From Candidatus Limimorpha sp. (GTDB taxonomy: Bacteria > Bacteroidota > Bacteroidia > Bacteroidales > F082), in the NCBI GenBank assembly GCA_045117495.1, contig JBGUNT010000089.1, positions 75 through 64,074 on the forward strand: a DNA stretch of 64,000 nucleotides, written 5' to 3'. The notes under the pieces are model-generated. The model ran no database searches. It was given only the letters and a program-made list of their open reading frames with translations, and was not told the origin of the DNA. Positions within the stretch are counted from its first letter, which is position 1; every line of letters begins with the position of its first letter. Shown piece by piece: positions 5,115-60,464 of the stretch. A program made the translations under genes and the position numbers.

Positions 5115-6347
5115 ATGAAACGACATTTCTTTGCCATCACTTTGCTGTTTTGCGTGTTTCTCCCGCAATGTCACGCCCAAGTCAGCCAAAACCATAACGA
5201 ACCAACAAGCATCATTACGACAGAGCAAGAGCCTTTATTGGCTTTTGTCGACAAGGCGCATTACATCTCTGCCGCAATGCAGATGGACGACTATCTCACG
5301 CTCCTGCAGGGAAAACGTGTCGGCGTAGTCGGCAACCAGACGAGCATCGTAGGAGAAAGGCATCTGGTGGACACTTTGCTCTCGCTGGGCATCGACATCC
5401 GTAAGATCTACACGCCTGAGCACGGCTTCCGCGGCACTGCCGACGCCGGCGCCAAGGTGAACAGCGGCAAAGACGAAAAGACGGGTATCGCCATCGCTTC
5501 ATTATACGGCAAAAACAAGAAGCCCACACCAGAAATGCTGCAAGGGATCGACATCATACTCTTTGACTTACAAGACGTCGGGGTTCGTTTCTACACTTAT
5601 ATTTCCACCATGAGCTACGTGATGGAAGCCGCTGCCGAAAACGGCATCCCCGTTGTCGTCCTCGACCGTCCCAATCCGAACGGCTTCTACGTCGACGGCC
5701 CTGTCCTGAAGGCTGAAAACCATTCTTTCGTGGGCATGCACCAGGTGCCTGTCGTCTACGGCATGACCATCGGTGAATACGCCCTGATGGTAAACGGCGA
5801 AGGCTGGCTTAAAAACGGCATTGCCTGCGACCTGACCGTGATTCCCATCAAGGGTTACATCCGCAACGCCATCTATGAATTGCCCGTGAAGCCCTCTCCC
5901 AACCTACCCAACTGGGAGTCGGTGTACCTCTATCCTACCCTTTGCTTCTTCGAAGGCAGTAGCGTCAGCGTGGGGCGCGGCACAGAGACGCCTTTCCAGG
6001 TTTATGGCCACCCCGACATGCGAGGGAGCTTTACTTTCACGCCCCAAAGCACCAGCGGTGCCTCAAAGCCCCTACTCGAAGGCCAACGTTGCCGCGGCGA
6101 GAACCTCGTGGAGTTCGCCCACGACTTTCCACACAACGAAAACCAGCTCCACTTAGAGTGGATTATCGATGCCTATCAACAAATGAAAGACAAAGGCTTC
6201 TTCAAGGATTACTTCCGTCTGCTGGCCGGTGACAAGCAACTGCAGCGCGCCATAGAAAACGGAAAAAGCGCGGACGAAATCCGCGCTTCATGGAGCGATG
6301 ACCTTGCATCGTTTTTGGCCATCCGGCAGAAATACCTACTCTACTGA
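5115..6347 (+). CDS. DUF1343-family protein (NamZ-like exo-beta-N-acetylmuramidase family)
   Basis: Signal peptide. Family-typical segments RVGVVGNQTS and ILFDLQDVGVRFYTYISTM. Confidence 0.7.
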   Translation: MKRHFFAITLLFCVFLPQCHAQVSQNHNEPTSIITTEQEPLLAFVDKAHYISAAMQMDDYLTLLQGKRVGVVGNQTSIVGERHLVDTLLSLGIDIRKIYTPEHGFRGTADAGAKVNSGKDEKTGIAIASLYGKNKKPTPEMLQGIDIILFDLQDVGVRFYTYISTMSYVMEAAAENGIPVVVLDRPNPNGFYVDGPVLKAENHSFVGMHQVPVVYGMTIGEYALMVNGEGWLKNGIACDLTVIPIKGYIRNAIYELPVKPSPNLPNWESVYLYPTLCFFEGSSVSVGRGTETPFQVYGHPDMRGSFTFTPQSTSGASKPLLEGQRCRGENLVEFAHDFPHNENQLHLEWIIDAYQQMKDKGFFKDYFRLLAGDKQLQRAIENGKSADEIRASWSDDLASFLAIRQKYLLY

Positions 6348-8015
6348 TTACATGAAACTGCTGCCACCGATAAACTGGCGCAACATAGATGTAGCCGGAA
6401 TCTCCTTGTCGGAGACAGGCGTGAAATAATGCAGGAAACGCAACAGACGGTGCGCTTCGGTGTATTCGCGGCAGTTGTTTGGCACCGTAGCCAAGGTACT
6501 CTCGGCATGGTTGCGCATGACGGCAAACTCCAAGAGATAAGCCGAGTTGAACATCACGTCGGCATTCTCCTGATAGGGATAGATCCACTTCTCCTCGGCG
6601 GCACGCACGCTGGCCCACTGGCTGATGGTTTGACGCGCTGTAAACGCACCTTTGTTATAGTCGCGCACGATGCGGCGCAGCAGTCGGTTGTCGTCAGTCG
6701 GGATGGTGTTGTGGTCATCCAATGCCGTGCTGGTCAAGGTGGAAATGAAGATGCGGAACTTGGTTGACTCGGGTATCTGGTCCGTCAGCATGGGATTTAA
6801 GGCGTGTATGCCTTCCAGCAACAAGACAGAGCCCGGCTTCAGCTGCAGTTTCTTGCCGTTGTATTCGCGCATACCCGTGACAAAGTTGTATTCAGGCACT
6901 TCTATCTCCTCGCCTTTCAGCAAGGCGATCAGGTCGCGTTCAAGGGCTGCGTGGTCGACCGTATCGAAGTTGTCAAAGTCATAGGTGCCATCAGGCAGCT
7001 TGGGGGTGTCCACACGGTTGACGAAATAATCGTCGGTGGAAAACGAGATGGGCTTCAGTCCGCAGGCCTTCAGCTGGATGCTGACGCGGCTGCAGAAGGT
7101 GGTCTTGCCGCTGCTGCTCGGTCCGGTGATGAGCACCAGACGGACGGGGTTTTCACTATGATAACGCCTGTTGATCTCCTCGGCGATCTGCACGATTTTC
7201 TTTTCTTGCAAGGCCTCAGCCACCTGCACCAACTCGCGCGCCATCCCATTTTGGCAGGCATGGTTGACATCGCCCACCGTGCTCAAGCCCATGATGTCGT
7301 TCCACTTCAGGCTTTCCGAAAACACCTCAAAGGTCTTAGGCTGGTCATGCATCTCGGCCAGCTGGTCGGGATGGTCACGGTCAGGAACACGGACCAGAAT
7401 GCCATCGCGATAGGAATCGATGTCCCAGATATTAAGATAGCCAGTGGATGGGACCAAACGGCCGTAATAATAGTCGGTGGTGCCATCCAAGGTGTAATAA
7501 TCGGTATAAGCCTCTCCGCTGGTTTCCAAAAGCTTCACCTTGTCTTCAAGCCCGAGTCCTCTGAACATGTTAATGGCATCCTCGATGCGGGCTTCATGGC
7601 GACGAAATTGGATGTCGTCGGCCACGATGGTCCTCATCCGCACCCTAAGGGCGGCGATGTCGTTGCCATCGAGGTTTTTCCCGTCGCTTTTCTTGATACG
7701 GTAATAGAAACCTTTAGAGATAGGATGCTCCATGCTCAGCTTACTGCCTGGAAACAAGTCCTGTGCGGCCTTATAAAGCAGGAAGCCCAACGACCGGAAA
7801 TAAACCAGACGTGCGGTATGGTGCGTGAGATCGAGAAACTCGACATCGCGGCTATTGTAGACACGAAATTTCAGCCCCTGCGACACATTGTTGACCATGG
7901 CGGAGACGATGGGATAAGGCCTGTCGAATTCAAACTCAGGCAACATCTCGAGCAAGGTCGTCCCCTCCTTGAACTCCTTTGTGGTTTGGTTGTTGATGCA
8001 ATAGACTTGAAGCAT
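6348..8015 (-). CDS. uridine/nucleoside kinase-family protein with N-terminal TGS-like extension
   Basis: 555 aa. P-loop ITGPSSSGKTTF within a C-terminal uridine-kinase-like domain. Confidence 0.7.
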   Translation of the reverse strand: MLQVYCINNQTTKEFKEGTTLLEMLPEFEFDRPYPIVSAMVNNVSQGLKFRVYNSRDVEFLDLTHHTARLVYFRSLGFLLYKAAQDLFPGSKLSMEHPISKGFYYRIKKSDGKNLDGNDIAALRVRMRTIVADDIQFRRHEARIEDAINMFRGLGLEDKVKLLETSGEAYTDYYTLDGTTDYYYGRLVPSTGYLNIWDIDSYRDGILVRVPDRDHPDQLAEMHDQPKTFEVFSESLKWNDIMGLSTVGDVNHACQNGMARELVQVAEALQEKKIVQIAEEINRRYHSENPVRLVLITGPSSSGKTTFCSRVSIQLKACGLKPISFSTDDYFVNRVDTPKLPDGTYDFDNFDTVDHAALERDLIALLKGEEIEVPEYNFVTGMREYNGKKLQLKPGSVLLLEGIHALNPMLTDQIPESTKFRIFISTLTSTALDDHNTIPTDDNRLLRRIVRDYNKGAFTARQTISQWASVRAAEEKWIYPYQENADVMFNSAYLLEFAVMRNHAESTLATVPNNCREYTEAHRLLRFLHYFTPVSDKEIPATSMLRQFIGGSSFM

Positions 8016-8041: not shown

Positions 8042-9076
8042 TTATTCCGTAACTTGGTTTTGTATTCTATTGACGCCATCAATGGCAAGGCGATAATCAG
8101 GCTGCGTACTCAGCACCTGTTTATAGATATCCAGCGCCTCCGAATAGCGCCCCATCTGTTCCAAGACCCTTCCTTTGTTGTAACGGGCGTCAAGATAATT
8201 GGGATTCACTTCCAATGCCTTGTCAAAATACTCCAGGGCCACCTCATTGTTTTCCATATAGACGAAGTTGACATAGGCGATGTTATACAACAGGATGTAA
8301 TTGTCAGGTTGTTGCATCAGCAGCGTATCGTAATGGTGCAAGGCCTCCTCGGGCTCGCCATGGCTTTGCTGGTACAAAGCCAACTCATAGCGCGCATTGG
8401 TTTGATCGGGGAATTGTTGCTGCACCTTTTTGATGTAATCCAATGCATAAGGAGGCTGTTGTACAGCATAAATCCTACAGATTTGCTCGACCGGATCGTA
8501 AAACTGCTCATCCTGTTCGGCAGCATATTGGAAATTCTTCAATGCATTCACCGTATCATGCTGAGCCACGATATAGTACATACCTTTCACAAAATAGGCT
8601 CTTGGATTGTAGGGCGCCAATTTCAAAGCCTTGTCGACATAGGCAGCGGCAAGGTTATAGTTTTGTTGCAACAGGTTGAGCTCGCCTAGCTTGACGACAG
8701 GACGGGGATCCATGGGGTCGATCTCGCAGGCCTTGTTGAGGGTAGTGCTGATATTGCCATCATCGCCCAAGCCATAATAGACATCCGCCAATAGCAGATA
8801 GGTGTCGATATTATTGGGATCGAACTGCAGCGACTTGTTGATGTCGATCATAGCCTGTCCGATTTGCTCGTTGGCAAAATACGCCTGTGCCCTTCTACGA
8901 TATAGGCCGGCATTGGTGCTGTCCATAGCGATGGAGTCGCTCAGCAGTTGGACGGCCTCGCTCATAGTGACGGGAGCCGTTGACACTTGGGCTGTATTGT
9001 CGGTTTCAGGTTTCGGCGTGTTGTTGCAGGCTACAAAAGCGAGCAGCAAGCCGAGGAAAAGGATGAATTTTTTCAT
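8042..9076 (-). CDS. TPR-repeat lipoprotein
   Basis: Start moved to MKKFILFLGLLLAFVAC (lipobox). Multiple 34-aa TPR-like repeats. The longer ORF start at 9142 runs into a repeat element. Confidence 0.8.
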   Translation of the reverse strand: MKKFILFLGLLLAFVACNNTPKPETDNTAQVSTAPVTMSEAVQLLSDSIAMDSTNAGLYRRRAQAYFANEQIGQAMIDINKSLQFDPNNIDTYLLLADVYYGLGDDGNISTTLNKACEIDPMDPRPVVKLGELNLLQQNYNLAAAYVDKALKLAPYNPRAYFVKGMYYIVAQHDTVNALKNFQYAAEQDEQFYDPVEQICRIYAVQQPPYALDYIKKVQQQFPDQTNARYELALYQQSHGEPEEALHHYDTLLMQQPDNYILLYNIAYVNFVYMENNEVALEYFDKALEVNPNYLDARYNKGRVLEQMGRYSEALDIYKQVLSTQPDYRLAIDGVNRIQNQVTE

Positions 9077-9103: not shown

Positions 9104-9140
9104 CGCTTTGCGCCACTGCTTCGTTCCTCGCAATGACGAC
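9104..9140. repeat. solo arm of the family-A palindromic element (CTTCGTTCCTCGCAATGACG)
   Basis: Matches the right arm of the complete elements at 11825-11920 and 29924-30008. Lies between the recA stop and the TPR gene start. Confidence 0.7.
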
Positions 9141-10461: not shown

Positions 10462-11790
10462 TCATATCCGCTTCCTTCCCCAGTCAGCCTTCCAAATATA
10501 CACCAGCGAAATCAGGCCGATGGAGATGTTGTAGACCCACTCGGCGGTCCACACGCCAGCGATGGTGGAGGTCTTCGACATCAGGAAGACATAGATGATG
10601 TAGATGATGAGGATGCCAAATTCCAAGGCCATGGCGGCCGTGGTGTTGCCCGTGCCCGAGACAGCCTCGAAGAAGGTCATGGAGAAAGCGCCCAACAAGG
10701 TGGCGGCACAGATCACATACACCGAAGGAATGGCCGCCTGCGCCAAGGTGGTGTCGTCCGTGTAAATCTGAAGGACGAGATGCGGGATGATCGCAACAAT
10801 GACAACCAACACCAACGAGCATAAGAAGCTGTTCTTCACCACTTTCCAGACGCTCGACATCACCTCGTTGCTCTTGCCCTCACCAATGATGCGGCTCGTC
10901 AAAGTGTTGGCAGTCGAGGCAAAGGCGATGCCTGGGATGATGAGGATCATATAGGTGCTGCGGACCACCGACGAAACGCCGATGGCGGTCTCGCCCATCT
11001 TCTCAATCATGACGAAGAAGATGAACCAGGCACCGAACGAGAACAGCCGCTGTATCATGCTCGGGAAAGCCACCTTGAGGATGTCGCCCATCAAAGCGGG
11101 CTGCCACTTGTGCCAACGAAACATGCCATATTCCTCATGCGGTATCTTGATGTAGGTGTAAATCCAGAAGAAGAAAAACGCCGTGATTTCGGCCAACAGC
11201 GAAGCCAAAGCCGCGCCACCGATGCCCATCTCGGGCAGACCCACGTGGCCGAAGATCAAGGCCCAGTCAAAAAAGATGTTGACCACGGCCATGATGATGG
11301 TTGAGAAGGTGATCACCTGGGTGCTGCTGATGCCGACATAAAAGGAGCGGAACAGGAAGTTGAACACCACGAACATGATGCCGAACTGCCTGAATCTCAA
11401 ATACTCGCTCGCCGCCGCATAAATGTTTTCCGACTCAATGATGACATGCAACAGCCTATGGCTGAAGAAGAATAGGATACTGAACAGCAAGATGCCCAAA
11501 CCCAGCACAAACAATGCCCCATGCTGAAACACCACGCCGATTTTGCTGAAGTTGCCCTCTCCGTAACGCCGCGCAATAAAGATCTGTATGCCCACGGCAA
11601 AGCCCATCGCTAGGGTGGTGAAGACGAAATAATACAAGCCCGCCATCATGGAGGCACTCAGCTCGATGGTGCCGAGGTGACCCAAGAAAGCGGTGTCGGT
11701 GAAGGTGATGATGGTCTGCGCCAGGTTACCCAACATGATAGGGTAAGCGATGCGCCAGATCTCGCGGTTCGATACGGTGGTTTTAATCAT
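10462..11790 (-). CDS. MATE-family efflux transporter
   Basis: 12-TM profile. N-terminal MATE signature IWRIAYPIMLGNLAQ. Start placed at MIKTT; the ORF is open to 11838. Confidence 0.85.
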   Translation of the reverse strand: MIKTTVSNREIWRIAYPIMLGNLAQTIITFTDTAFLGHLGTIELSASMMAGLYYFVFTTLAMGFAVGIQIFIARRYGEGNFSKIGVVFQHGALFVLGLGILLFSILFFFSHRLLHVIIESENIYAAASEYLRFRQFGIMFVVFNFLFRSFYVGISSTQVITFSTIIMAVVNIFFDWALIFGHVGLPEMGIGGAALASLLAEITAFFFFWIYTYIKIPHEEYGMFRWHKWQPALMGDILKVAFPSMIQRLFSFGAWFIFFVMIEKMGETAIGVSSVVRSTYMILIIPGIAFASTANTLTSRIIGEGKSNEVMSSVWKVVKNSFLCSLVLVVIVAIIPHLVLQIYTDDTTLAQAAIPSVYVICAATLLGAFSMTFFEAVSGTGNTTAAMALEFGILIIYIIYVFLMSKTSTIAGVWTAEWVYNISIGLISLVYIWKADWGRKRI

Positions 11791-11824
11791 GCTGCAAAGA
11801 TAGGAATTTATTAGCACATTAATG

Positions 11825-14061: not shown

Positions 14062-14197
14062 ACCGTCATTGCGGGCTTGACCCGCAAATCGAAGATTAGC
14101 TACGCTGAATCAAAGATTTCGACGTAGTCAATCTCCTATACGTAAGGGTGTCGTCTCCGCACGTAGGAGATGGCGGATCCTTGTCCGCCATGACGGG
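14062..14197. mobile_element. gene-less miniature element bounded by inverted hairpins (CCGTCAT-hairpin-AATC ... GAGAT-hairpin-ATGACGG)
   Basis: Left end at 14062-14090 has the GCGGGCTTGACCCGC hairpin. Right end at 14167-14197 has the GGCGGATCCTTGTCCGCC hairpin. Same terminal architecture as the two GIY-YIG cassettes at 57.3 and 58.8 kb. Confidence 0.6.
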
Positions 14198-19787: not shown

Positions 19788-19795
19788 CCGCCGAT

Positions 19796-19892
19796 ACCAA
19801 TAGGGGTGCCTTATCTGCTACGCAGATTGAAAGACAGGCTGAGATCAAACCCTTTGCACCTGATACGGATAATGCCGAAACAGGGAATCGAG
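19796..19892 (+). promoter_or_regulatory. TPP (THI-box) riboswitch
   Basis: Conserved elements AGGGGTGCC ... GCTGAGA ... ACCCTTTGCACCTGATACGGATAATGCCGAAACAGGGAA match the TPP aptamer consensus. Confidence 0.85.
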
Positions 19893-19948
19893 TTCCTCAT
19901 CTTTCCTCTATTGATTTATTGAATTATTAATCATTAAATCAACGAGTT

Positions 19949-28791: not shown

Positions 28792-30038
28792 TATTCTTCC
28801 ACTAAATGATAGTATTTCGGCTCATATCCCTCCCACGCCCCTGTCAACAGCTCGGGGTGGAAGAAATGGATGAAATCAGCCAGCAATAGGTCGGGCTCGC
28901 ATTGCGACTGCTCAAAATAACCCGTTGAAAGGATATCGCAGACGATGATTTTATGGTTTTTAAAAGCATCGAAAAGCGTATAGACAGGGTTCTCTTTCCC
29001 TAAGGATTCATATGTCATCGGAAAAGGATTGGAGTTGATGACACGCCAATATTCGGCCTGCTGTGCCTTGGCGAGGATGCTCTCGGCGTCCATGGGGACG
29101 CTAGCCGTCGACGGGTTGTCTTTCCATATGTAGTCGGCACCGGCATCGGCAAAGAGTTTGGCGATATAGCTGCGGCCTCCCGCCACATACCACTGCCCGT
29201 TGAAAGCCAAGTCAGAGAATACAGTGGGACGATGCTCCACCCCGGCACAAAGTGTCGAGAGGGCTTTGTAGCGTCGTTCGATGTCGGCAAACCAAGCGTC
29301 GGCCTTATCCTCACAGCCTGCCATGATGCCGATGACACGGATCCATTCGGCACGGCCCAAGGGCGTGTTCTCCATATAATCGGCAAAGGGGAACAACACA
29401 GCACCTGTGACATTGAGACCGCCTTGGTTGCCATCGAAATAGGGCGAATACAACAAGGCGTCGGGCTTGATTTGTATCATACGCTCGATGTCAGCAGCGG
29501 CCTCCGTACCGATGTCGTAAACTTTCTCCTCTGCCAATAAGGCGCGCATGGTGGAGTCGGTGACAAAACGACCCTCAAGGATGCCTTTCACGCGGTCGAT
29601 CTCGCCAAGGCGAAGAAATACTGCCCATTGTGTGGCTGAGAACGAGACCACGGACTTGACTGGGACTCGAAGTACGCCTTTCACATCCGTATCGACGGCT
29701 TTCGTCGTGTCTTTGACCATGGCAAACTTGCCCAGCGACAAGGTGGTATCCCACGGGCAGATCACTTCCATCAGATAGCCGTAGTCTTTCTCGCTGACGA
29801 CGACATTATGCGCATAGCGCATCAGGTTGTCGACCTCGGTCTTCTCTTCCTTGACTTGATGGTTGAACCTACAGGATGATGCGGAGAACAATAATCCTAA
29901 TATCAGCAACAACCCTAATGCGTGTCGCTTCGCGTCATTGCGAGCGTAGCGCGGCAATCCAGATGTGATGCTTCCTTTCTGGATTTCTTCGTTCCTCGCA
30001 ATGACGGAATCCGTCAGTATTGGTTTATCGTTTTCCAT
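28791..30038 (-). CDS. periplasmic-binding-protein-type (BtuF/FhuD-like) ABC substrate-binding lipoprotein
   Basis: Peripla_BP_2-like segments (VKSVVSFSATQWAVFLRLGEIDRV, IKPDALLYSPY). Lipobox LFSASSC. True start is uncertain: the ATG at 30038 precedes a repeat element, and an alternative TTG at 29957 lies inside the element. Confidence 0.75.
   Translation of the reverse strand: MENDKPILTDSVIARNEEIQKGSITSGLPRYARNDAKRHALGLLLILGLLFSASSCRFNHQVKEEKTEVDNLMRYAHNVVVSEKDYGYLMEVICPWDTTLSLGKFAMVKDTTKAVDTDVKGVLRVPVKSVVSFSATQWAVFLRLGEIDRVKGILEGRFVTDSTMRALLAEEKVYDIGTEAAADIERMIQIKPDALLYSPYFDGNQGGLNVTGAVLFPFADYMENTPLGRAEWIRVIGIMAGCEDKADAWFADIERRYKALSTLCAGVEHRPTVFSDLAFNGQWYVAGGRSYIAKLFADAGADYIWKDNPSTASVPMDAESILAKAQQAEYWRVINSNPFPMTYESLGKENPVYTLFDAFKNHKIIVCDILSTGYFEQSQCEPDLLLADFIHFFHPELLTGAWEGYEPKYYHLVEE
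29924..30008. repeat. complete family-A palindromic element embedded in the 5' end of the binding-protein ORF
   Basis: Arms GTCGCTTCGCGTCATTGCGAGCGTAGCGCGGCAATCCAGA and TCTGGATTTCTTCGTTCCTCGCAATGACGG. Translated in frame as VIARNEEIQ...LPRYARNDAKRH. Confidence 0.8.
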
Positions 30039-33582: not shown

Positions 33583-33694
33583 AATAATATAATTTTAGGT
33601 TTGACATTCAATCCATTACATTAAAATGCTTTAGGGAAACGTGGATACACCTTATGCTATAAGGAAAGCCAGCTCTTGTCCCGAAAGCCTCGTT

Positions 33695-33860
33695 TCGTCG
33701 ACAGGCGGCAGGTCTTCTGACTTACTCCTTGAAGCGGGTCGCCTTCCCGAAAAACAATGTTTTCAGTGGCATAGTGACCAGCGTGAAGAGCTTACAGCAG
33801 CGGGAACTGTCCAGGATTTGCACCCGATTCCCTATTGAGCCTTGAGGCACCGCTTATCGG
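33695..33860 (-). promoter_or_regulatory. cobalamin (B12) riboswitch aptamer
   Basis: The minus strand reads GGTGCC...AATAGGGAATCGGGTGCAAATCC...GACAGTTCCCGCTGCTGTAA...GCCACTG...GGGAAGGC...AGTCAGAAGACCTGCC. The B12 box is at 33707-33722. The expression platform continues to the ATG at 33582. Confidence 0.88.
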
Positions 33861-33863
33861 TTG

Positions 33864-33871
33864 CAAAGATA
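33864..33871 (-). promoter_or_regulatory. -7 box (TATCTTTG on minus strand) driving the B12 riboswitch operon
   Basis: Plus-strand CAAAGATA immediately upstream of the riboswitch 5' end. Confidence 0.55.
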
Positions 33872-42174: not shown

Positions 42175-42262
42175 GGAGATATGGCTGAGTGGTCGATAGC
42201 GGCGGTCTTGAAAACCGTTAAGCCGAAAGGCTTCGGGGGTTCGAATCCCTCTGTCTCCGCCA
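42175..42262 (+). tRNA. tRNA-Ser (anticodon TGA), CCA encoded
   Basis: Acceptor GGAGATA pairs with TGTCTCC. Anticodon loop CTTGAAA. Long variable arm. T-loop GGTTCGAATCC. Confidence 0.92.
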
Positions 42263-42296
42263 AGCGGCAATTGTCGCTTTCTTTTTTTCCTGTTTT

Positions 42297-42382
42297 GGAG
42301 AGATGCCGGAGTGGTCGATCGGGGCGGTCTCGAAAACCGTTGAACGCTTTGCGTTCCAAGGGTTCGAATCCCTTTCTCTCCG
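42297..42382 (+). tRNA. tRNA-Ser (anticodon CGA)
   Basis: Acceptor GGAGAGA pairs with TCTCTCC. Anticodon loop CTCGAAA. Long variable arm. T-loop GGTTCGAATCC. Confidence 0.92.
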
Positions 42383-55937: not shown

Positions 55938-57143
55938 CTAAGGGCGGCGGATAGTGAGTGGGATGGATTCGGGGTGGGTTTGGCAGAACGAATGTGCGTC
56001 TTTGACGACGCAGGCAAGATAGCCGCCTCCGCCGGCGCCGGGCATTTTCCAAGCTAGGACATCGGGGATAGCGGAATAGCGTTTGATGAAGTCTTCAATC
56101 GTAGGAGATTGCGGGTCTTCGCCCGCAATGACACCATGGGGGTGAACCATTCCAGGAAACATGGAAGTCTGGGCATTAAACGAAGCTTTGTAGGCCTTAG
56201 CAAAGGCGTCCAAGTCCTTATGCATGATGGCTTGCCAGCAGTCGTCGGCAGCTTGGGCCAAGGCCTTCACTTTCGGCTCGGTGATGTCTTTGCCTTCCAC
56301 CACGGAACAGCCCGGTTGGCGTGGCTCCATGGGAATCATGACGAGATGCTGCTCGAGCCAACTCAAAATGTCTTCGTCTTGACAAGTCTCAATCTTGATG
56401 GGCCAATAGAGTTTGTCGTAATAGTGTCGCACCAGCCCCGGCATGCAGATGCCAATGCTGTCCTGTGCCCCACTGATGATGCCGTCGCTACGCTCCGGAT
56501 CGTTCTCGAAACAGAAGACGAGCTTGGCGAGGGTCTCAGGGTCCATGTCGGGCAGTCGCATCGGCCATATCCTTTTGATCATGTTGCGTGTCGAGGTGGA
56601 GAGGCCGCAGCGCTCGCGCACCTCGAAAGTGGGCTCCAGCGAGATAGTGATGGCCCATCCTGGGGCGAAGCAGGAGACGTAGGGCTGGTCGATCCATGTG
56701 CCGGCGAGGTCCAAGCGGGTGGGAATCTGGCAGAGGTCCTGTTTCAGCGCGGTGGAAGAACGGGCTTCCAACCCTTTGGAGGGGGTGCGTTGCAGCACAA
56801 TGTATTGGATGCCTCGCTCCTCGCAAAACTTACGTTTCGCTTCGGAGGCACCGTCCTCGTTGACCACAAAGATATCAGGCTTCACCCGATCGACAGTGCC
56901 GATGAAATCCATCACGCCGTCGCCATCGTTGATGAAGGCGTCTTTCACGTAGCGGATGGCCTTCACCATGAAGAGGCGCTCCTTTTCGGGATAGAGCGTC
57001 TTATGGTTTTTGTAGTGCAGGATGGTCTCGTCGGAGCCAATGCCCACATAGAGGTCGCCATACTGCGCCGCCTGGCGGAAGAACTCGACGTGGCCGCTGT
57101 GGAGGAGGTCGTAACAACCGCTGACGAAAACCTTCGGTTTCAT
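55938..57143 (-). CDS. fusion of a cytidylyltransferase-fold nucleotidyltransferase and a GHMP-family sugar kinase
   Basis: N-terminal VFVSGCYDLLHSGHVEFF (HxGH). C-terminal GHMP motif II-like CGLSTST and motif III MPGAGGGGY. Start moved to MKPKV. Confidence 0.7.
   Translation of the reverse strand: MKPKVFVSGCYDLLHSGHVEFFRQAAQYGDLYVGIGSDETILHYKNHKTLYPEKERLFMVKAIRYVKDAFINDGDGVMDFIGTVDRVKPDIFVVNEDGASEAKRKFCEERGIQYIVLQRTPSKGLEARSSTALKQDLCQIPTRLDLAGTWIDQPYVSCFAPGWAITISLEPTFEVRERCGLSTSTRNMIKRIWPMRLPDMDPETLAKLVFCFENDPERSDGIISGAQDSIGICMPGLVRHYYDKLYWPIKIETCQDEDILSWLEQHLVMIPMEPRQPGCSVVEGKDITEPKVKALAQAADDCWQAIMHKDLDAFAKAYKASFNAQTSMFPGMVHPHGVIAGEDPQSPTIEDFIKRYSAIPDVLAWKMPGAGGGGYLACVVKDAHSFCQTHPESIPLTIRRP
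56105..56132. repeat. family-B hairpin (GAGATTGCGGGTCTTCGCCCGCAATGAC) lying in frame inside the kinase CDS
   Basis: Nearly identical to the intergenic hairpin at 57708-57738. Translated as GVIAGEDPQSP. Confidence 0.75.
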
Positions 57144-57216
57144 TAGTGTAGAGTTTAGAGTTGTGGTTTGTTGAGAGTTCAAAGTTTAGAGTTGTGGTTT
57201 GTTGAGAGTGTATAGT
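57144..57216 (-). promoter_or_regulatory. G-poor heptamer-repeat leader upstream of the kinase gene
   Basis: One C in 73 nt on the plus strand. A 27-nt perfect direct repeat AGTTTAGAGTTGTGGTTTGTTGAGAGT occurs at 57152-57178 and 57183-57209. Confidence 0.7.
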
Positions 57217-57699
57217 TTAAGAGTTGTTAGTGTCATTTGGTTTGTAGGAGTTGAGGAGGCCTGAGAGAAGACGAGCGTCTTCTTGCCCTTCCTTATAAGG
57301 CACTCTATGGGCCGTACCGCGGCCCTCATCGCGGGCTTGACCCGCGATCTCCGCGATTTCCCCTTTCTCTTCATACGCCTCTTTCACCCCCCGCATATAA
57401 TCAGCATCAACTCCAATGGCTTCAGCCAAATCTTTCCAATCAGGATTAAAGCCATTGATCAAGTCCTCTTTCCACTCTCTACGCCACTTCTTCAGTTGTT
57501 TCTCTCTATGTATTCCAACATCCAAGCGATCATACTCTTCATAATACACAAGTTTTTCAGTATTATACCTGTCAGAGAACCCTTGATTGATGTGTAACTT
57601 ATGTTCTGCAACTCTCCTTTTTAGGTTCCTTGTGACTCCTGTGTAAAGAGTGGTGTTGTACTTGTTGGTTAATATGTAAACGATTCCTTTTGGGCCCAT
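57217..57699 (-). CDS. GIY-YIG nuclease-family protein, copy 1 (C-terminally extended)
   Basis: GIVYILTN...LYTGVT..L..R..EH GIY-YIG core. About three quarters identical by eye to copy 2 over roughly 110 aa. The ORF then reads through the flanking hairpin (EIAGQARDEG). Confidence 0.8.
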   Translation of the reverse strand: MGPKGIVYILTNKYNTTLYTGVTRNLKRRVAEHKLHINQGFSDRYNTEKLVYYEEYDRLDVGIHREKQLKKWRREWKEDLINGFNPDWKDLAEAIGVDADYMRGVKEAYEEKGEIAEIAGQARDEGRGTAHRVPYKEGQEDARLLSGLLNSYKPNDTNNS

Positions 57700-57738
57700 A
57701 GCATTATGAGATTGCGGGTCTACGCCCGCAATGAGGGG
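57323..57738 (-). mobile_element. GIY-YIG cassette 1 bounded by inverted family-B hairpins
   Basis: Left end CCCTCATCGCGGGCTTGACCCGCGATCTC (57323-57351). Right end GAGATTGCGGGTCTACGCCCGCAATGAGGGG (57708-57738). These are reverse complements, with compensatory stem changes. Confidence 0.5.
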
Positions 57739-57851
57739 TTAACAGCATTGAGAGGGGCTAACAACGATTGGATTTACGCACGCAACGAAAGGTTAACAGC
57801 ATTGAGGGGGTCTACATGGATTATGCCAAAAGCCAATGGCCAAAGGTGCGA

Positions 57852-58793
57852 TTATCGCTCCGCGCGCATAGGGTTATTCAAAAAGTCATCATACGCCAAG
57901 CGGATGCCGTCCTCCAAGTCGGTCTTGTAGGTCCAGCCGAGGGCAGTGGCCTTGCTCACATCCAACAGCTTGCGAGGTGTGCCGTTGGGGCGGGTGGTGT
58001 CCCACTTGATGTTGCCTTCGTAGCCAATAACCTTGGCGACCAGTTCGGTGAGTGCCTTGATGGTCAGCTCCTTCCCTGTCCCAGCGTTGACGGTCTCGTT
58101 GCCGCTGTAGTTGTTCATCAGGAAAACGCAGAGGTTGGCGAGGTCGTCGACATATAGGAACTCGCGCAGCGGCGAGCCGTCGCCCCAGCAGATTACCTCC
58201 TTCAGCCCGTTGACCTTGGCTTCGTGGAAGCGGCGGATCAACGCGGGCAGCACATGGCTATGCTCAGGATGGTAGTTATCGTTGGGGCCATACAGGTTAG
58301 TCGGCATCACGCTGATGTAGTCGGTGCCATACTGGCGGTTGAGGAACTCACAATACTTCAGGCCGCTGATCTTCGCCAAGGCATAGGCTTCGTTGGTCTT
58401 CTCAAGCTCGCCTGTGAGCAGGCATGACTCCTTCATAGGCTGTGGCGCCATACGGGGATAGATACAACTGCTGCCGAGGAACTCCAGCTTCTTGCAGCCG
58501 TTCTTCCAAGCCGCATGGATGACGTTCATCTCGAGGATCATGTTGTCGTACATGAAGTCGGCCAGGGCGTTCTGGTTGGCGATGATGCCGCCGACTTTGG
58601 CCGCGGCGAGGAAGACGTATTCGGGCTTTTCGGCTTCGAAGAAGGCCTCCACCTGGTCCTGACGCGTCAAGTCCAGTTCTTTATGCGTCCTGGTGATGAT
58701 GTTGGAATAGCCTTGTCGTTGCAATTCACGGACGATGGCCGAGCCCACCATCCCACGGTGACCAGCAACGTATATTTTGCTGTTTTTGTTCAT
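57852..58793 (-). CDS. fcl: GDP-L-fucose synthase
   Basis: Rossmann motif KIYVAGHRGMVGSAI. Catalytic YxxxK (YALAK). Start moved to MNKNSK. Confidence 0.93.
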   Translation of the reverse strand: MNKNSKIYVAGHRGMVGSAIVRELQRQGYSNIITRTHKELDLTRQDQVEAFFEAEKPEYVFLAAAKVGGIIANQNALADFMYDNMILEMNVIHAAWKNGCKKLEFLGSSCIYPRMAPQPMKESCLLTGELEKTNEAYALAKISGLKYCEFLNRQYGTDYISVMPTNLYGPNDNYHPEHSHVLPALIRRFHEAKVNGLKEVICWGDGSPLREFLYVDDLANLCVFLMNNYSGNETVNAGTGKELTIKALTELVAKVIGYEGNIKWDTTRPNGTPRKLLDVSKATALGWTYKTDLEDGIRLAYDDFLNNPMRAER

Positions 58794-58847
58794 TGTTTTT
58801 GTATTTGCTTCTAATACTGCGCTATCGGACAAACCCAAAACGGGAGA

Positions 58848-59301
58848 CCCTCATGGCGGACAAGGATCCGCCATCTCTCACGCTTAGGGTGGCTCTGGAT
58901 CATAATATCCATTTTCATACGCATCTTTTACAGACTGCATATATTCCTCATTCAATCCTATCGAATCCGACAAGTCTTCCCATGTAGGATTGAATTCGCT
59001 TATCAACTTCTCTTTCCATTCCCTACGCCATTTCTTCAGCTGTTTTTCTCTGTGGATACCATCAACGAGAAGATCATAGACTTCATAATACACCAGTTTC
59101 TCTGTGTTGTATCGTTCAGAGAAGCCATTATTAATATGGAGCTTATGCTCGGCCATCCTACGTATGAGGTTTCTGGTCACTCCTGTATAAAGGGTTGTGT
59201 TGTTTTTATTTGTGAGGATGTAGACAATTCCTTGGAGAGGCATAGGAGCGAGTGTGTCGTTTCGTGTCAGAGATCGCGGGTCTGACGCCCGCGATGAGGG
59301 G
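58848..59301 (-). mobile_element. GIY-YIG cassette 2 bounded by inverted hairpins
   Basis: Left end CCCTCATGGCGGACAAGGATCCGCCATCTCTC (58848-58879). Right end GAGATCGCGGGTCTGACGCCCGCGATGAGGGG (59270-59301). Same CCCTCAT...ATGAGGGG termini as cassette 1. Confidence 0.5.
58884..59243 (-). CDS. GIY-YIG nuclease-family protein, copy 2
   Basis: 119 aa with GIVYILTNKNNTTLYTGVTRNLIRRMAEHK. Confidence 0.85.
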   Translation of the reverse strand: MPLQGIVYILTNKNNTTLYTGVTRNLIRRMAEHKLHINNGFSERYNTEKLVYYEVYDLLVDGIHREKQLKKWRREWKEKLISEFNPTWEDLSDSIGLNEEYMQSVKDAYENGYYDPEPP

Positions 59302-59384
59302 TTTGGGGTGTGAGTGGGTCGTTAACGGGAAAGGTTGGTGAGAGCGTTGGATGCAATGCATTTCTACCACGAAGGAATATCCCA

Positions 59385-60464
59385 CTAATCCTCCATGTGT
59401 GTCTTCAAATACAACTTCTTCACAAACCTCATATCATGCTCGACCATGATCCTGACGAGGTCTTCGAAGGATGTCTTGCGGGGGTTCCAGCCGAGGAGTG
59501 TCTTGGCCTTGGTGGGGTCGCCGAGCAGCTGCTCCACCTCTGCCGGGCGGAAGAAGCGTGGGTCGACCTCGACCAGGCTCTTGCCCGTAGCGATGTCGAT
59601 GCCTCTCTCGTCGACGCCTTCGCCTTCCCAGCGTAGGGTAATGCCCACGTGCTTGAAAGCCAAGGTGCAGAACTCGCGGACGGTGTGGTACTCACCCGTG
59701 GCGATAACGAAGTCTTCAGGCTTCTCCTGCTGCAGGATGAGCCACATGCACTCCACGTAGTCCTTGGCATAGCCCCAGTCGCGGAGGGCATTGAGGTTAC
59801 CGAGATAGAGCTTGTCCTGATAGCCTTGCTTGATGCGTGCCGCCGCTAGGGTAATCTTGCGGGTGACGAAGGTCTCGCCGCGGCGTTCGCTCTCATGGTT
59901 GAAGAGGATGCCGTTGACGGCGAACATGCCATAGCTCTCGCGGTAGTTCTTCACAATCCAGAAGCCGTACTGCTTGGCCACACCATAGGGCGAGCGTGGA
60001 TAGAAGGGTGTGGTCTCCTTCTGTGGCACCTCTTGCACGAGGCCAAAGAGCTCGGATGTGGAGGCTTGGTATATCCTGCATTTCTTCTCCAGCCCGAGGA
60101 TGCGCACGGCTTCGAGAAGGCGCAGTGTGCCGACGGCGTCGGCTTCGGCGGTGTACTCGGGGCAGTCGAACGACACCTTGACATGGCTCTGGGCGGCCAG
60201 GTTATAGATTTCGTCGGGTTGTATCTTTTGGATGATGCGAACGAGCGACGACGAGTCGGTCATGTCGCCGTAGTGCAGGGTGAGCAGGCGCTTGTTCTTC
60301 ATGTCGCGCACCCATTCATCGAGGTAGAGGTGTTCGATGCGACCTGTGTTGAACGACGACGAGCGACGGATGATGCCGTGCACCTCGTAGCCTTTTTCCA
60401 AAAGGAACTCGGCAAGGAATGAGCCATCTTGGCCCGTGATGCCGGTGATTAATGCGGTTTTCAT
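59385..60464 (-). CDS. gmd: GDP-mannose 4,6-dehydratase
   Basis: [27 protein letters not shown]. Catalytic YGVAK. Highly conserved throughout. Confidence 0.96.

Follow-up and report, generated by a model that had tools for sequence, protein, structure and literature searches.

The Ssn nucleases, together with their hairpin repeats, were described by Chenal et al. (2025, Nat Commun 16:2388; PMC11893778), who included the arrangement NTS-ssnA-NTS of Neisseria. SsnA of Neisseria meningitidis (Nm) is a single-domain GIY-YIG protein that binds the oriented NTS hairpin (CGTCATTCCCGCGMAVGCGGGAATCYRG) only in single-stranded DNA (ssDNA) and cuts the bound strand a few nucleotides 5' of the motif, cutting neither double-stranded DNA (dsDNA) nor RNA; the C just after the palindrome weighs most for binding, and the three bases before the palindrome weigh most for cleavage (PMC11893778). 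Mutations of Y6, Y17 and E64 of Nm SsnA abolished cleavage, and an altered palindrome sequence with the structure kept likewise abolished activity (PMC11893778). In N. meningitidis, SsnA reduces transformation by NTS-containing DNA, and in Neisseria the NTS clusters flank surface-glycan-type loci; homologs of SsnA over many phyla are flanked by related motifs (SRMs), on both sides in 42% (PMC11893778). The Discussion of that paper likens NTS-ssnA-NTS to an insertion sequence, to IS200/IS605 and to repetitive extragenic palindromic (REP) elements with their RAYT transposases, and mobility was proposed, not shown; the activity characterised there is that of a hydrolytic ssDNA nuclease and not of a transposase (PMC11893778). 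We analysed a stretch of 64,000 nucleotides from Candidatus Limimorpha sp. (Bacteroidales, F082; contig JBGUNT010000089.1), hereafter the window, which carries two cassettes, each with a small GIY-YIG nuclease gene between inverted hairpins, in the surface-glycan (GDP-fucose) operon gmd-fcl-kinase. Judged by their sequences, cassettes 1 and 2 are members of the published Ssn/SRM system and not a new kind of system.

Cassette 1 occupies positions 57323-57738, where a minus-strand GIY-YIG gene lies between two inverted copies of an oriented hairpin motif, which in the window has the form C[C/G]TCAT-(8-bp stem, 4-7 nt loop)-ATCTC. An earlier note on this DNA had reported the bracketed arrangement, which is confirmed by sequence, by the Pfam match (4.6e-14) and by shuffle controls. 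Its suggestion that such a system was undescribed does not hold, since the Ssn/SRM system, including the analogy with REP/RAYT, was published in 2025 (PMC11893778); our literature search on GIY-YIG with miniature inverted-repeat transposable elements (MITEs), hairpins, Bacteroid* or 23S intervening sequences found nothing relevant beyond that paper. The compensatory changes that the note had seen are also real: the two stems of cassette 1 are one pair apart (C-G versus T-A), and the loops are also unlike. The 5' copy reads GAGAT-TGCGGG-tctac-GCCCGCA-ATGAGGG in plus-strand letters and folds as DNA at -8.4 kcal/mol (z=-3.35), and the 3' copy folds at -14.6 kcal/mol (z=-4.1).

The proteins of the two cassettes are 71% identical over their first ~110 residues, and homology ends near residue 110. 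By BLASTP against the 94-aa SsnA ortholog of N. gonorrhoeae, the cassette 2 protein showed 48% identity over 89/94 residues without gaps (E=3e-30), and the cassette 1 protein also showed 48% identity without gaps (E=1e-27). This ortholog (L024:1501-1785; L numbers denote fetched loci) was used for comparison in place of CAX49033.1; its open reading frame (ORF), reached by tblastn against PLSDB, is surrounded by copies of CGTCATTCCCGCGCAGGCGGGAATC. The PLSDB records NZ_CP119140.1 and NZ_CP119142.1 are 2.17-Mb N. gonorrhoeae chromosomes filed as plasmids, a database artefact. The published rule for the Ssn family (cd10448) sets a blastp limit of E<1e-10 and a coverage of SsnA of 75% or more, and both window proteins fall within it when compared with the gonococcal ortholog. 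The catalytic Y6, Y17 and E64 of Nm SsnA correspond to Y8, Y19 and E66 in both window proteins. The cassette 2 protein, of 119 aa, is within the single-domain size (<=150 aa) and has GIY-YIG (PF01541) as its sole Pfam domain; the cassette 1 ORF exceeds 150 aa solely through read-through into non-homologous sequence. A Pfam search detected no Y1_Tnp domain (PF01797) in either ORF, GIY-YIG being the only match, and the cassette 2 protein had no match among PDB sequences at E<=0.01.

The flanks of the window hairpins match those of NTS (CGTCAT-stem-ATC), TCAT...ATC being common to both. The general SRM definition of the published work, oriented hairpins of 20-50 nt on both sides, describes both window cassettes and 14/18 of their close homologs. 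In sequence architecture, the window hairpins are SRMs, but they are not SRMs by the published search pattern. The likeness to the Neisseria system thus extends from the single-domain GIY-YIG protein (48% identity, same catalytic residues) to the TCAT/ATC-flanked hairpins on both sides and the extra gene-less copies. Unlike that system, the window has stems with a G-rich 5' arm and mostly CTCAT before them, with which the published pattern has no match, and shows a strict simple bracket (forward motif upstream, inverted motif downstream) with ~30 nt of conserved outer sequence, in an uncultured rumen Bacteroidales host. The stem in the window and close homologs can be written AT-N-[GC]-C-G-G-N, and, when the fetched loci are compared, the stems grade from ATTCCCGC (Neisseria) through ATTCCCGG, ATTCCGGC and ATTCCTGC to ATTGCGGG, ATCGCGGG, ATAGCGGG and ATGGCGGA. 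As a side observation, the base three positions before the stem is C (CTCAT) in 31/46 gene-flanking hairpins, GTCAT is found in 24/49 dispersed copies and isolated doublets have nearly always G; these copies are not phylogenetically independent, and we make no claim of a functional difference.

The hairpins are far more frequent in the window than chance predicts. The exact flank-plus-stem pattern has 3 matches, with 0.00 expected in shuffles. A structure-only scan, which required TCAT, then 8 perfectly paired bp beginning at AT around a loop of 3-8 nt, and lastly a C, gave 6 sites, whereas 200 dinucleotide shuffles gave 0.02 on average and never more than 1; the 6 sites are the four cassette ends, one arm of a gene-less doublet at 14.06 kb and a site within the coding sequence of the kinase gene at 56.1 kb. 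The recurrences that the earlier note had listed, at cassette 2, at 14.06 kb and at 56.1 kb, were thus all recovered. Every window hairpin folds as ssDNA well below shuffled controls (z -3.2 to -4.5). When 51 distinct motif copies were aligned, 99.5% of the helix cells were paired, a percentage that is partly built in by the scan's demand for near-perfect stems. The diversity of the stems is not built in by the scan: 6/8 stem pairs vary on both sides, and one pair takes all four Watson-Crick types. G-T occurs in only 1/408 stem cells, a near-absence that fits DNA rather than RNA pairing. The C that follows the palindrome and the TC that precedes it vary little or not at all, and on these positions binding and cleavage were found to depend in the published work (PMC11893778). 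The positions that do not vary in the motif (C on either side of the stem, the first A and the central C-G pair) mirror the mutational map in that paper.

A genome scan with both proteins gave 23 loci, mostly in metagenome-assembled genomes of rumen Bacteroidales, the nearest being RUG12545 (L001) and 'bacterium F082' (L010). Among 18 close homologs, the forward motif lies within 150 nt upstream of the gene in 16 and the inverted motif lies downstream in 15. The motif density is 8.1/kb within 150 nt of the gene and 0.11/kb over the remaining 267 kb, a 75-fold enrichment, which supports the association of the hairpins with the nuclease gene. At 17/17 loci, representing about 9 independent contexts, ssn has the orientation of the gene upstream of it, and the cassette-2 type recurs in other gene contexts at 71-87% nucleotide identity. 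Tandem hairpin arrays with a period of ~110 nt adjoin ssn in L004, L008 and L013. More distant homologs show related arrangements. The copy on plasmid AZO_p3 of Azospirillum lipoferum 4B (L108, 255506-255799), 50% identical, occupies the junction of sufB with sufC and has pattern-positive canonical SRM doublets to its left and right; co-oriented insertion within an operon is therefore not confined to Bacteroidales. A Spirosoma homolog lies between two glycoside hydrolase genes, and Sinorhizobium homologs have hairpins of the CCCTCAT type. A scan of IMG/VR viral contigs and tblastn against GenBank phages detected no relatives, giving no sign of a phage vehicle.

We then compared the operon among relatives. 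The gmd-fcl and fcl-kinase spacers of the window measure 591 nt and 708 nt, and the operon DNA is 92-94% identical to L001 and L010. L001 has cassette 2 and, at the cassette 1 site, an intact four-helix-bundle gene (11443-11796); L010 has cassette 1 and, at the cassette 2 site, a four-helix-bundle gene (8408-8773). Used as the query of a metagenome scan, Fcl retrieved 80 loci whose Fcl is at least 90% identical. In one of these, L026 (Gmd 97%, Fcl 96%, kinase 85% identity), both junctions are empty: gmd and fcl are joined as TAA-GA-ATG and the fcl stop overlaps the ATG of the kinase gene, leaving no room for cassettes. Because the genes of L026 abut at both junctions, the two cassettes and all else in the 591- and 708-nt spacers are, on this sequence comparison, insertions into a translationally coupled operon. 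Other relatives have further occupants at these junctions, among them four-helix-bundle genes (L033, L046, L047 and L092), a bare SRM doublet (L083), solo SRMs (L058 and L070) and CA-rich leader repeats (L029). The four-helix-bundle genes (23S_rRNA_IVP, PF05635, bAvd-like) look like a second kind of cassette that competes for the same junctions. In L006 (11420-11900) and L057 (3550-4000), another Ssn lineage, 46% identical to cassette 2, lies just downstream of fcl. The motifs that flank it are of the GTCAT...GGAATCTAT and ATGACATCCC types and have loops of ~30 nt, indicating that a further nuclease-hairpin pair reached the same junction independently. The earlier note had proposed a search for empty sites in this region, and presence/absence variation is clear. 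It had also named three outcomes that would speak against it (ordinary terminators, homologs without flanking hairpins and a cassette fixed at this locus); the hairpins are not terminator-like, the homologs carry inverted hairpins and the locus is not fixed. In exact-sequence look-ups, there was no record for the window Fcl or Gmd, and the only match to the cassette 2 protein was a single Logan contig of 1.2 kb.

The limits of the units were defined by comparison of copies from unlike gene contexts. In cassette-2-type copies, ~20-35 nt are conserved outside each SRM in end alignments (upstream ..TAAACGACAC..CCCCAAA; downstream, read inward, ..GCTTTATTGAGAAAACCCAAAGCGGGA), and homology of cassette 2 to other-context copies runs past the hairpins, which are therefore subterminal. 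The hairpin coordinates given earlier for cassette 1 thus stand, but the unit is larger than had been supposed, with ~30-35 nt conserved outside the hairpins in cassette-2-type copies. Cassette 1 itself is altered at its ends. Its Ssn core comprises residues 1-110 (57370-57699), beyond which the ORF reads through the 3' hairpin, its own stop codon being absent. The read-through that had been noticed is therefore correct, but not as a simple loss of the stop: the ~85 nt past the 3' hairpin align with the last part of a 23S_rRNA_IVP four-helix-bundle gene and with the flank that follows it, the tail of the 160-aa ORF matches the four-helix-bundle ORF of L010, and the last ~17 codons, ending in ..EDARLLSGLLNSYKPND, derive from this fused remnant. 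The remnant was missed by blastn-short and was revealed by direct nucleotide alignment, PF05635 being assigned on the intact relatives. At the other end, only 8 nt separate the 5' SRM from the ATG. Since there is almost no 5' leader and no promoter is predicted, cassette 1 is presumably expressed by read-through from the operon. Upstream of cassette 1, L010 contains one further copy of a 54-nt repeat unit that is also duplicated in the window.

The motif is also found apart from ssn. The doublet at 14.06 kb sits between divergent ORFs, one candidate TTG-start ORF overlapping its left end; one arm has a 7-bp stem and the other a perfect 8-bp stem. The solo hairpin at 56.1 kb lies in frame within the kinase gene. 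Nine kinase orthologs are without this insertion and seven have it (the window counted among the seven). Those without it read ..MFPAMIQG-(S/C)VQ.., and 12-13 extra hairpin-encoded codons stand at this point in the window, L001, L010, L028, L030 and L070; in L030 (about 6300-6380), a second hairpin is nested inside the loop of the first. In a rough neighbour-joining tree of the kinase, with the insert columns removed and without support values, the insert-bearing genes fall in 2-3 separate clades, and the empty L026 is sister to the window/L001 pair. These observations are a lead only, and hint at repeated gain, precise loss or recombination of the hairpin in this gene.

Taken together, we consider with good confidence that the cassettes are SRM-ssn-SRM units of the Ssn type that behave as selfish insertions in F082-like rumen Bacteroidales and encode a proposed ssDNA nuclease. 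This explanation is built on family membership by sequence, on the association and covariation of the hairpins and on the insertion polymorphism; by analogy with the characterised enzymes, we infer that the window proteins would cleave ssDNA 5' of the motif and that such cleavage drives the spread of the units. Each unit consists of a gene for a single-domain GIY-YIG nuclease of ~110-120 aa and, on its two sides, the cognate oriented hairpin in inverted copies. For binding to the hairpin, the protein most likely requires ssDNA; it would read the TCAT before the stem and the C after it, and would then hydrolyse the bound strand a few nucleotides 5' of the motif, as judged by homology to the enzymes of Neisseria and Wolbachia. 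With the motifs in inverted orientation, one cleavable motif would fall at the 5' end of each strand of the unit, and a nick would be expected immediately beyond the unit, on the strand that replication, conjugation or repair leaves exposed. To complete transposition, a hydrolytic GIY-YIG enzyme would probably need host replication or repair. The units entered the junctions of gmd-fcl-kinase co-oriented with the operon, and the motifs are also present as gene-less doublets and solo hairpins. We put this mechanism of mobility forward as a proposal.

Several observations weigh against this explanation. The published SRM pattern HGTCWYN(0-2)YYVSBRHN(0-5)WNVSBRGN(0-2)RNCYNB matches neither the window nor any of the 18 close-homolog loci, because these have a G-rich 5' stem arm and, in most gene-flanking copies, CTCAT for GTCAT; the pattern does match the copies of N. 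gonorrhoeae, Azospirillum and Rickettsiales. As a change of the palindrome with the structure kept abolished the activity of Nm SsnA, recognition of the present stems, if it takes place, must be by a co-evolved stem specificity. The activity of Ssn proteins of Bacteroidota is itself predicted from homologs, and cassette 1, truncated at both ends, may be inactive. Neither a target-site duplication nor a shared target sequence was detected at three empty/filled comparisons, and no precise-excision allele of a cassette was found among the relatives compared. The junctions hold extra sequence of unassigned origin, so that the exact cassette ends are not fixed. Furthermore, cuts outside the unit on opposite strands fit no established transposition chemistry.

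These points leave room for other explanations. The nuclease could be a domesticated host function that restricts motif-carrying ssDNA, whether entering from outside or exposed in the cell, and so modulates recombination or horizontal transfer near the genes that the motifs flank, with the hairpins as host-maintained marks. Restriction of ssDNA is the sole role of Ssn that has been demonstrated experimentally, in transformation assays (PMC11893778), the catalytic residues are intact in both window copies and the cassettes lie in a surface-glycan (GDP-fucose) operon, a type of locus flanked by NTS clusters in Neisseria. The junctions, however, show turnover, being empty in the closest relative and elsewhere holding unrelated small genes, the other Ssn lineage or bare hairpins; cassette 1 is degraded, and one hairpin interrupts a coding sequence. 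As an account of the whole, a host function is possible but rather doubtful. A host role in ssDNA restriction is compatible with a mobile origin, and would not exclude the explanation of the cassettes as selfish insertions.

The remaining two explanations are less probable. A free-standing homing endonuclease, similar to the seg genes of phage T4, would break the empty junction allele, into which recombinational repair would then copy its gene; the hairpins would be incidental or protective. Such an origin would agree with a GIY-YIG fold between conserved genes, as known for T4 Seg and I-TevI, with the filled and empty alleles among relatives and with a weak match to the NCBIfam group I intron endonuclease family (TIGR01453). 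This match is sub-threshold (19.5-20.8 bits, cut-off 56.05) and covers the first ~35 residues only. T4 Seg and I-TevI carry extra DNA-binding domains and cut dsDNA, whereas the present protein is a bare catalytic domain of ~110 aa, Pfam detecting no NUMOD/IENR DNA-binding modules in either copy, and characterised Ssn enzymes leave dsDNA uncut (PMC11893778). Homing, which we regard as improbable, would also leave unexplained the gene-less doublets, the solo and nested hairpins and the presence of the same cassette in ~9 unrelated contexts. It could also be argued that the hairpins are transcriptional or RNA-level elements (terminators, attenuators or REP-like mRNA stabilisers) and that the proximity of the nuclease is secondary, as their stem-loops are stable and rich in GC and lie in intergenic parts of the operon that are transcribed. 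The criterion for intrinsic terminators, a GC-rich stem with a T-run, identified no terminator-like SRM hairpin, the tails being ATCTCC or ATGAGGG, and a role as terminators was rejected. Both orientations relative to transcription occur within one unit, G-U intermediates are nearly absent (1/408 cells), Rfam gave no family at the hairpins of the window at the gathering threshold and the enrichment is tied to ssn rather than to gene ends in general. An RNA-level role therefore appears very improbable as the basis of the arrangement.

The selfish-insertion explanation can be set beside several known systems of repeats. As in REP or REPIN with RAYT, there are short oriented palindromes, an inverted doublet as the apparent unit and a few- or single-copy gene flanked by its repeats; RAYTs, in contrast, are HUH/Y1 proteins (PF01797) acting through covalent intermediates, whereas the present enzyme is a hydrolytic GIY-YIG protein without a Y1 domain. 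The subterminal hairpins recognised as ssDNA, with cleavage a few nucleotides away (predicted here by homology), resemble IS200/IS605. In those elements, the ends are on the same strand and are processed by the Y1 TnpA, while the present motifs are inverted (both cassettes and 14/18 homolog loci), on opposite strands and associated with another enzyme class. Tandem arrays of hairpin-bounded units of 50-150 nt are shared with Neisseria dRS3/NIME (L004, L008 and L013, and the decayed repeat at 57716-57814 of the window); unlike dRS3/NIME, the window holds array remnants only, and the sequences are unrelated outside the motif flanks. Rhizobial RIME-type mosaics also form comparable arrays. Rickettsia palindromic elements (RPE), of 100-150 bp, insert in frame into protein genes without destroying them. 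The palindromic in-frame insertion at 56104-56132 is RPE-like, but with a shorter insertion of ~39 nt.

A more far-reaching proposal, which we offer tentatively, is that SRM-ssn-SRM units are autonomous mobile elements in which movement at hairpins extruded on ssDNA is started by a hydrolytic GIY-YIG ssDNA nuclease instead of an HUH or DDE enzyme, making the units a second, independently evolved counterpart of the lifestyle of REPIN/RAYT and IS200/IS605. Under this proposal, the units would insert co-directionally at operon junctions, shed gene-less doublets and insert in frame into coding sequences, possibly repeatedly at one codon, given that the insert-bearing kinase genes lie in 2-3 clades of the rough tree.

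What is new in this analysis is the Bacteroidales variant of SRM missed by the published pattern, the comparative evidence for insertion and the in-frame hairpin in a coding sequence. The Ssn paper left the mobility of the units open, and the filled and empty alleles, together with the alternative occupants and the hairpins inserted without a gene, nested or in frame, now make mobility directly testable. As the published pattern misses the Bacteroidales motif class (and the Sinorhizobium-type CTCAT), current censuses undercount the system; it also follows that more nuclease-hairpin specificity pairs exist for the development of ssDNA tools. For annotation, the small 'GIY-YIG nuclease family protein' genes in Bacteroidales operons should be annotated as Ssn cassettes, as should the odd peptide tails that they create.

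Table 1. Positions in the window of the two ssn cassettes, the related hairpins and the genes of the operon
Feature	Position	Strand	Description
Cassette 1 3' SRM hairpin	57323-57351	+	CCCTCATCGCGGGCTTGACCCGCGATCTC; CCCTCAT-CGCGGG-cttga-CCCGCG-ATCTC; inverted relative to the 5' copy, forward motif on the + strand
Cassette 1 ssn ORF	57217-57699	-	160 aa; Pfam GIY-YIG E=4.6e-14
Cassette 1 5' SRM hairpin	57708-57738	-	CCCTCATTGCGGGCGTAGACCCGCAATCTC at 57708-57737; in gene orientation CCCCTCAT-TGCGGG-cgtaga-CCCGCA-ATCTC
23S_rRNA_IVP four-helix-bundle gene remnant	57201-57285	-	3'-terminal part (..EDARLLSGLLNSYKPND*) with 3' flank; in-frame fusion with the cassette 1 ORF
Decayed extra SRM half and flank	57770-57814	-	Upstream of cassette 1; 54-nt direct repeat of 57716-57760
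Cassette 2, full extent	58828-59325	-	blastn limits against other-context copies in L003, L011, L013 and L023
Cassette 2 3' SRM	58847-58877	+	CCCTCAT-GGCGGA-caagga-TCCGCC-ATCTC; flanks as at the 5' end, stem unlike
Cassette 2 ssn ORF	58884-59243	-	119 aa, intact, own stop; Pfam GIY-YIG 1.7e-14
Cassette 2 5' SRM	59270-59300	-	CCCTCAT-CGCGGG-cgtcaga-CCCGCG-ATCTC
Gene-less SRM doublet (REPIN/MITE-like)	14063-14197		Two inverted SRMs with a structured 75-nt spacer; fold z=-4.45
Solo SRM in the cytidylyltransferase/kinase coding sequence	56104-56132	-	Encodes ..GVIAGEDPQSP.., part of a 12-13-codon in-frame insertion (~39 nt)
gmd	59385-60464	-	
fcl	57852-58793	-	
Kinase gene	55938-57143	-	401 aa; cytidylyltransferase-like N-terminal domain; weak sub-threshold C-terminal fucokinase match

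Other repeats were observed at the junctions and elsewhere in the window. Flanks of the canonical NTS type (CGTCATTGCGAGG...GCAATCCAGA) mark a second SRM-like family, present at 9137(-), 11909(-), 29934(+) and 30005(-); this family includes an inverted doublet at 29934-30008 (DNA fold z=-3.8), and a matching ssn gene is absent from the window. Directly upstream of the kinase start, at 57145-57227, there are tandem repeats that are G-poor and CA-rich on the gene strand (ACTCTCAACAAACCACAACTCTAAACT, 31-nt period, 2.6 copies), and similar CTCTAAACT repeats fill junctions in relatives (L029:1705-1779; L010 near 8780-8850). The gmd/fcl junction of L032 (1024-1194) contains a 171-nt insertion with short repeats of the CACAGAT/GTGAAATC type, which contains neither an ORF nor an SRM and represents another sort of junction filler. 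Away from the hairpins, Rfam identified a cobalamin riboswitch at 33690-33869(-), a TPP riboswitch at 19792-19903(+) and two adjacent tRNA genes at 42175-42382(+), which have no relation to the cassettes.

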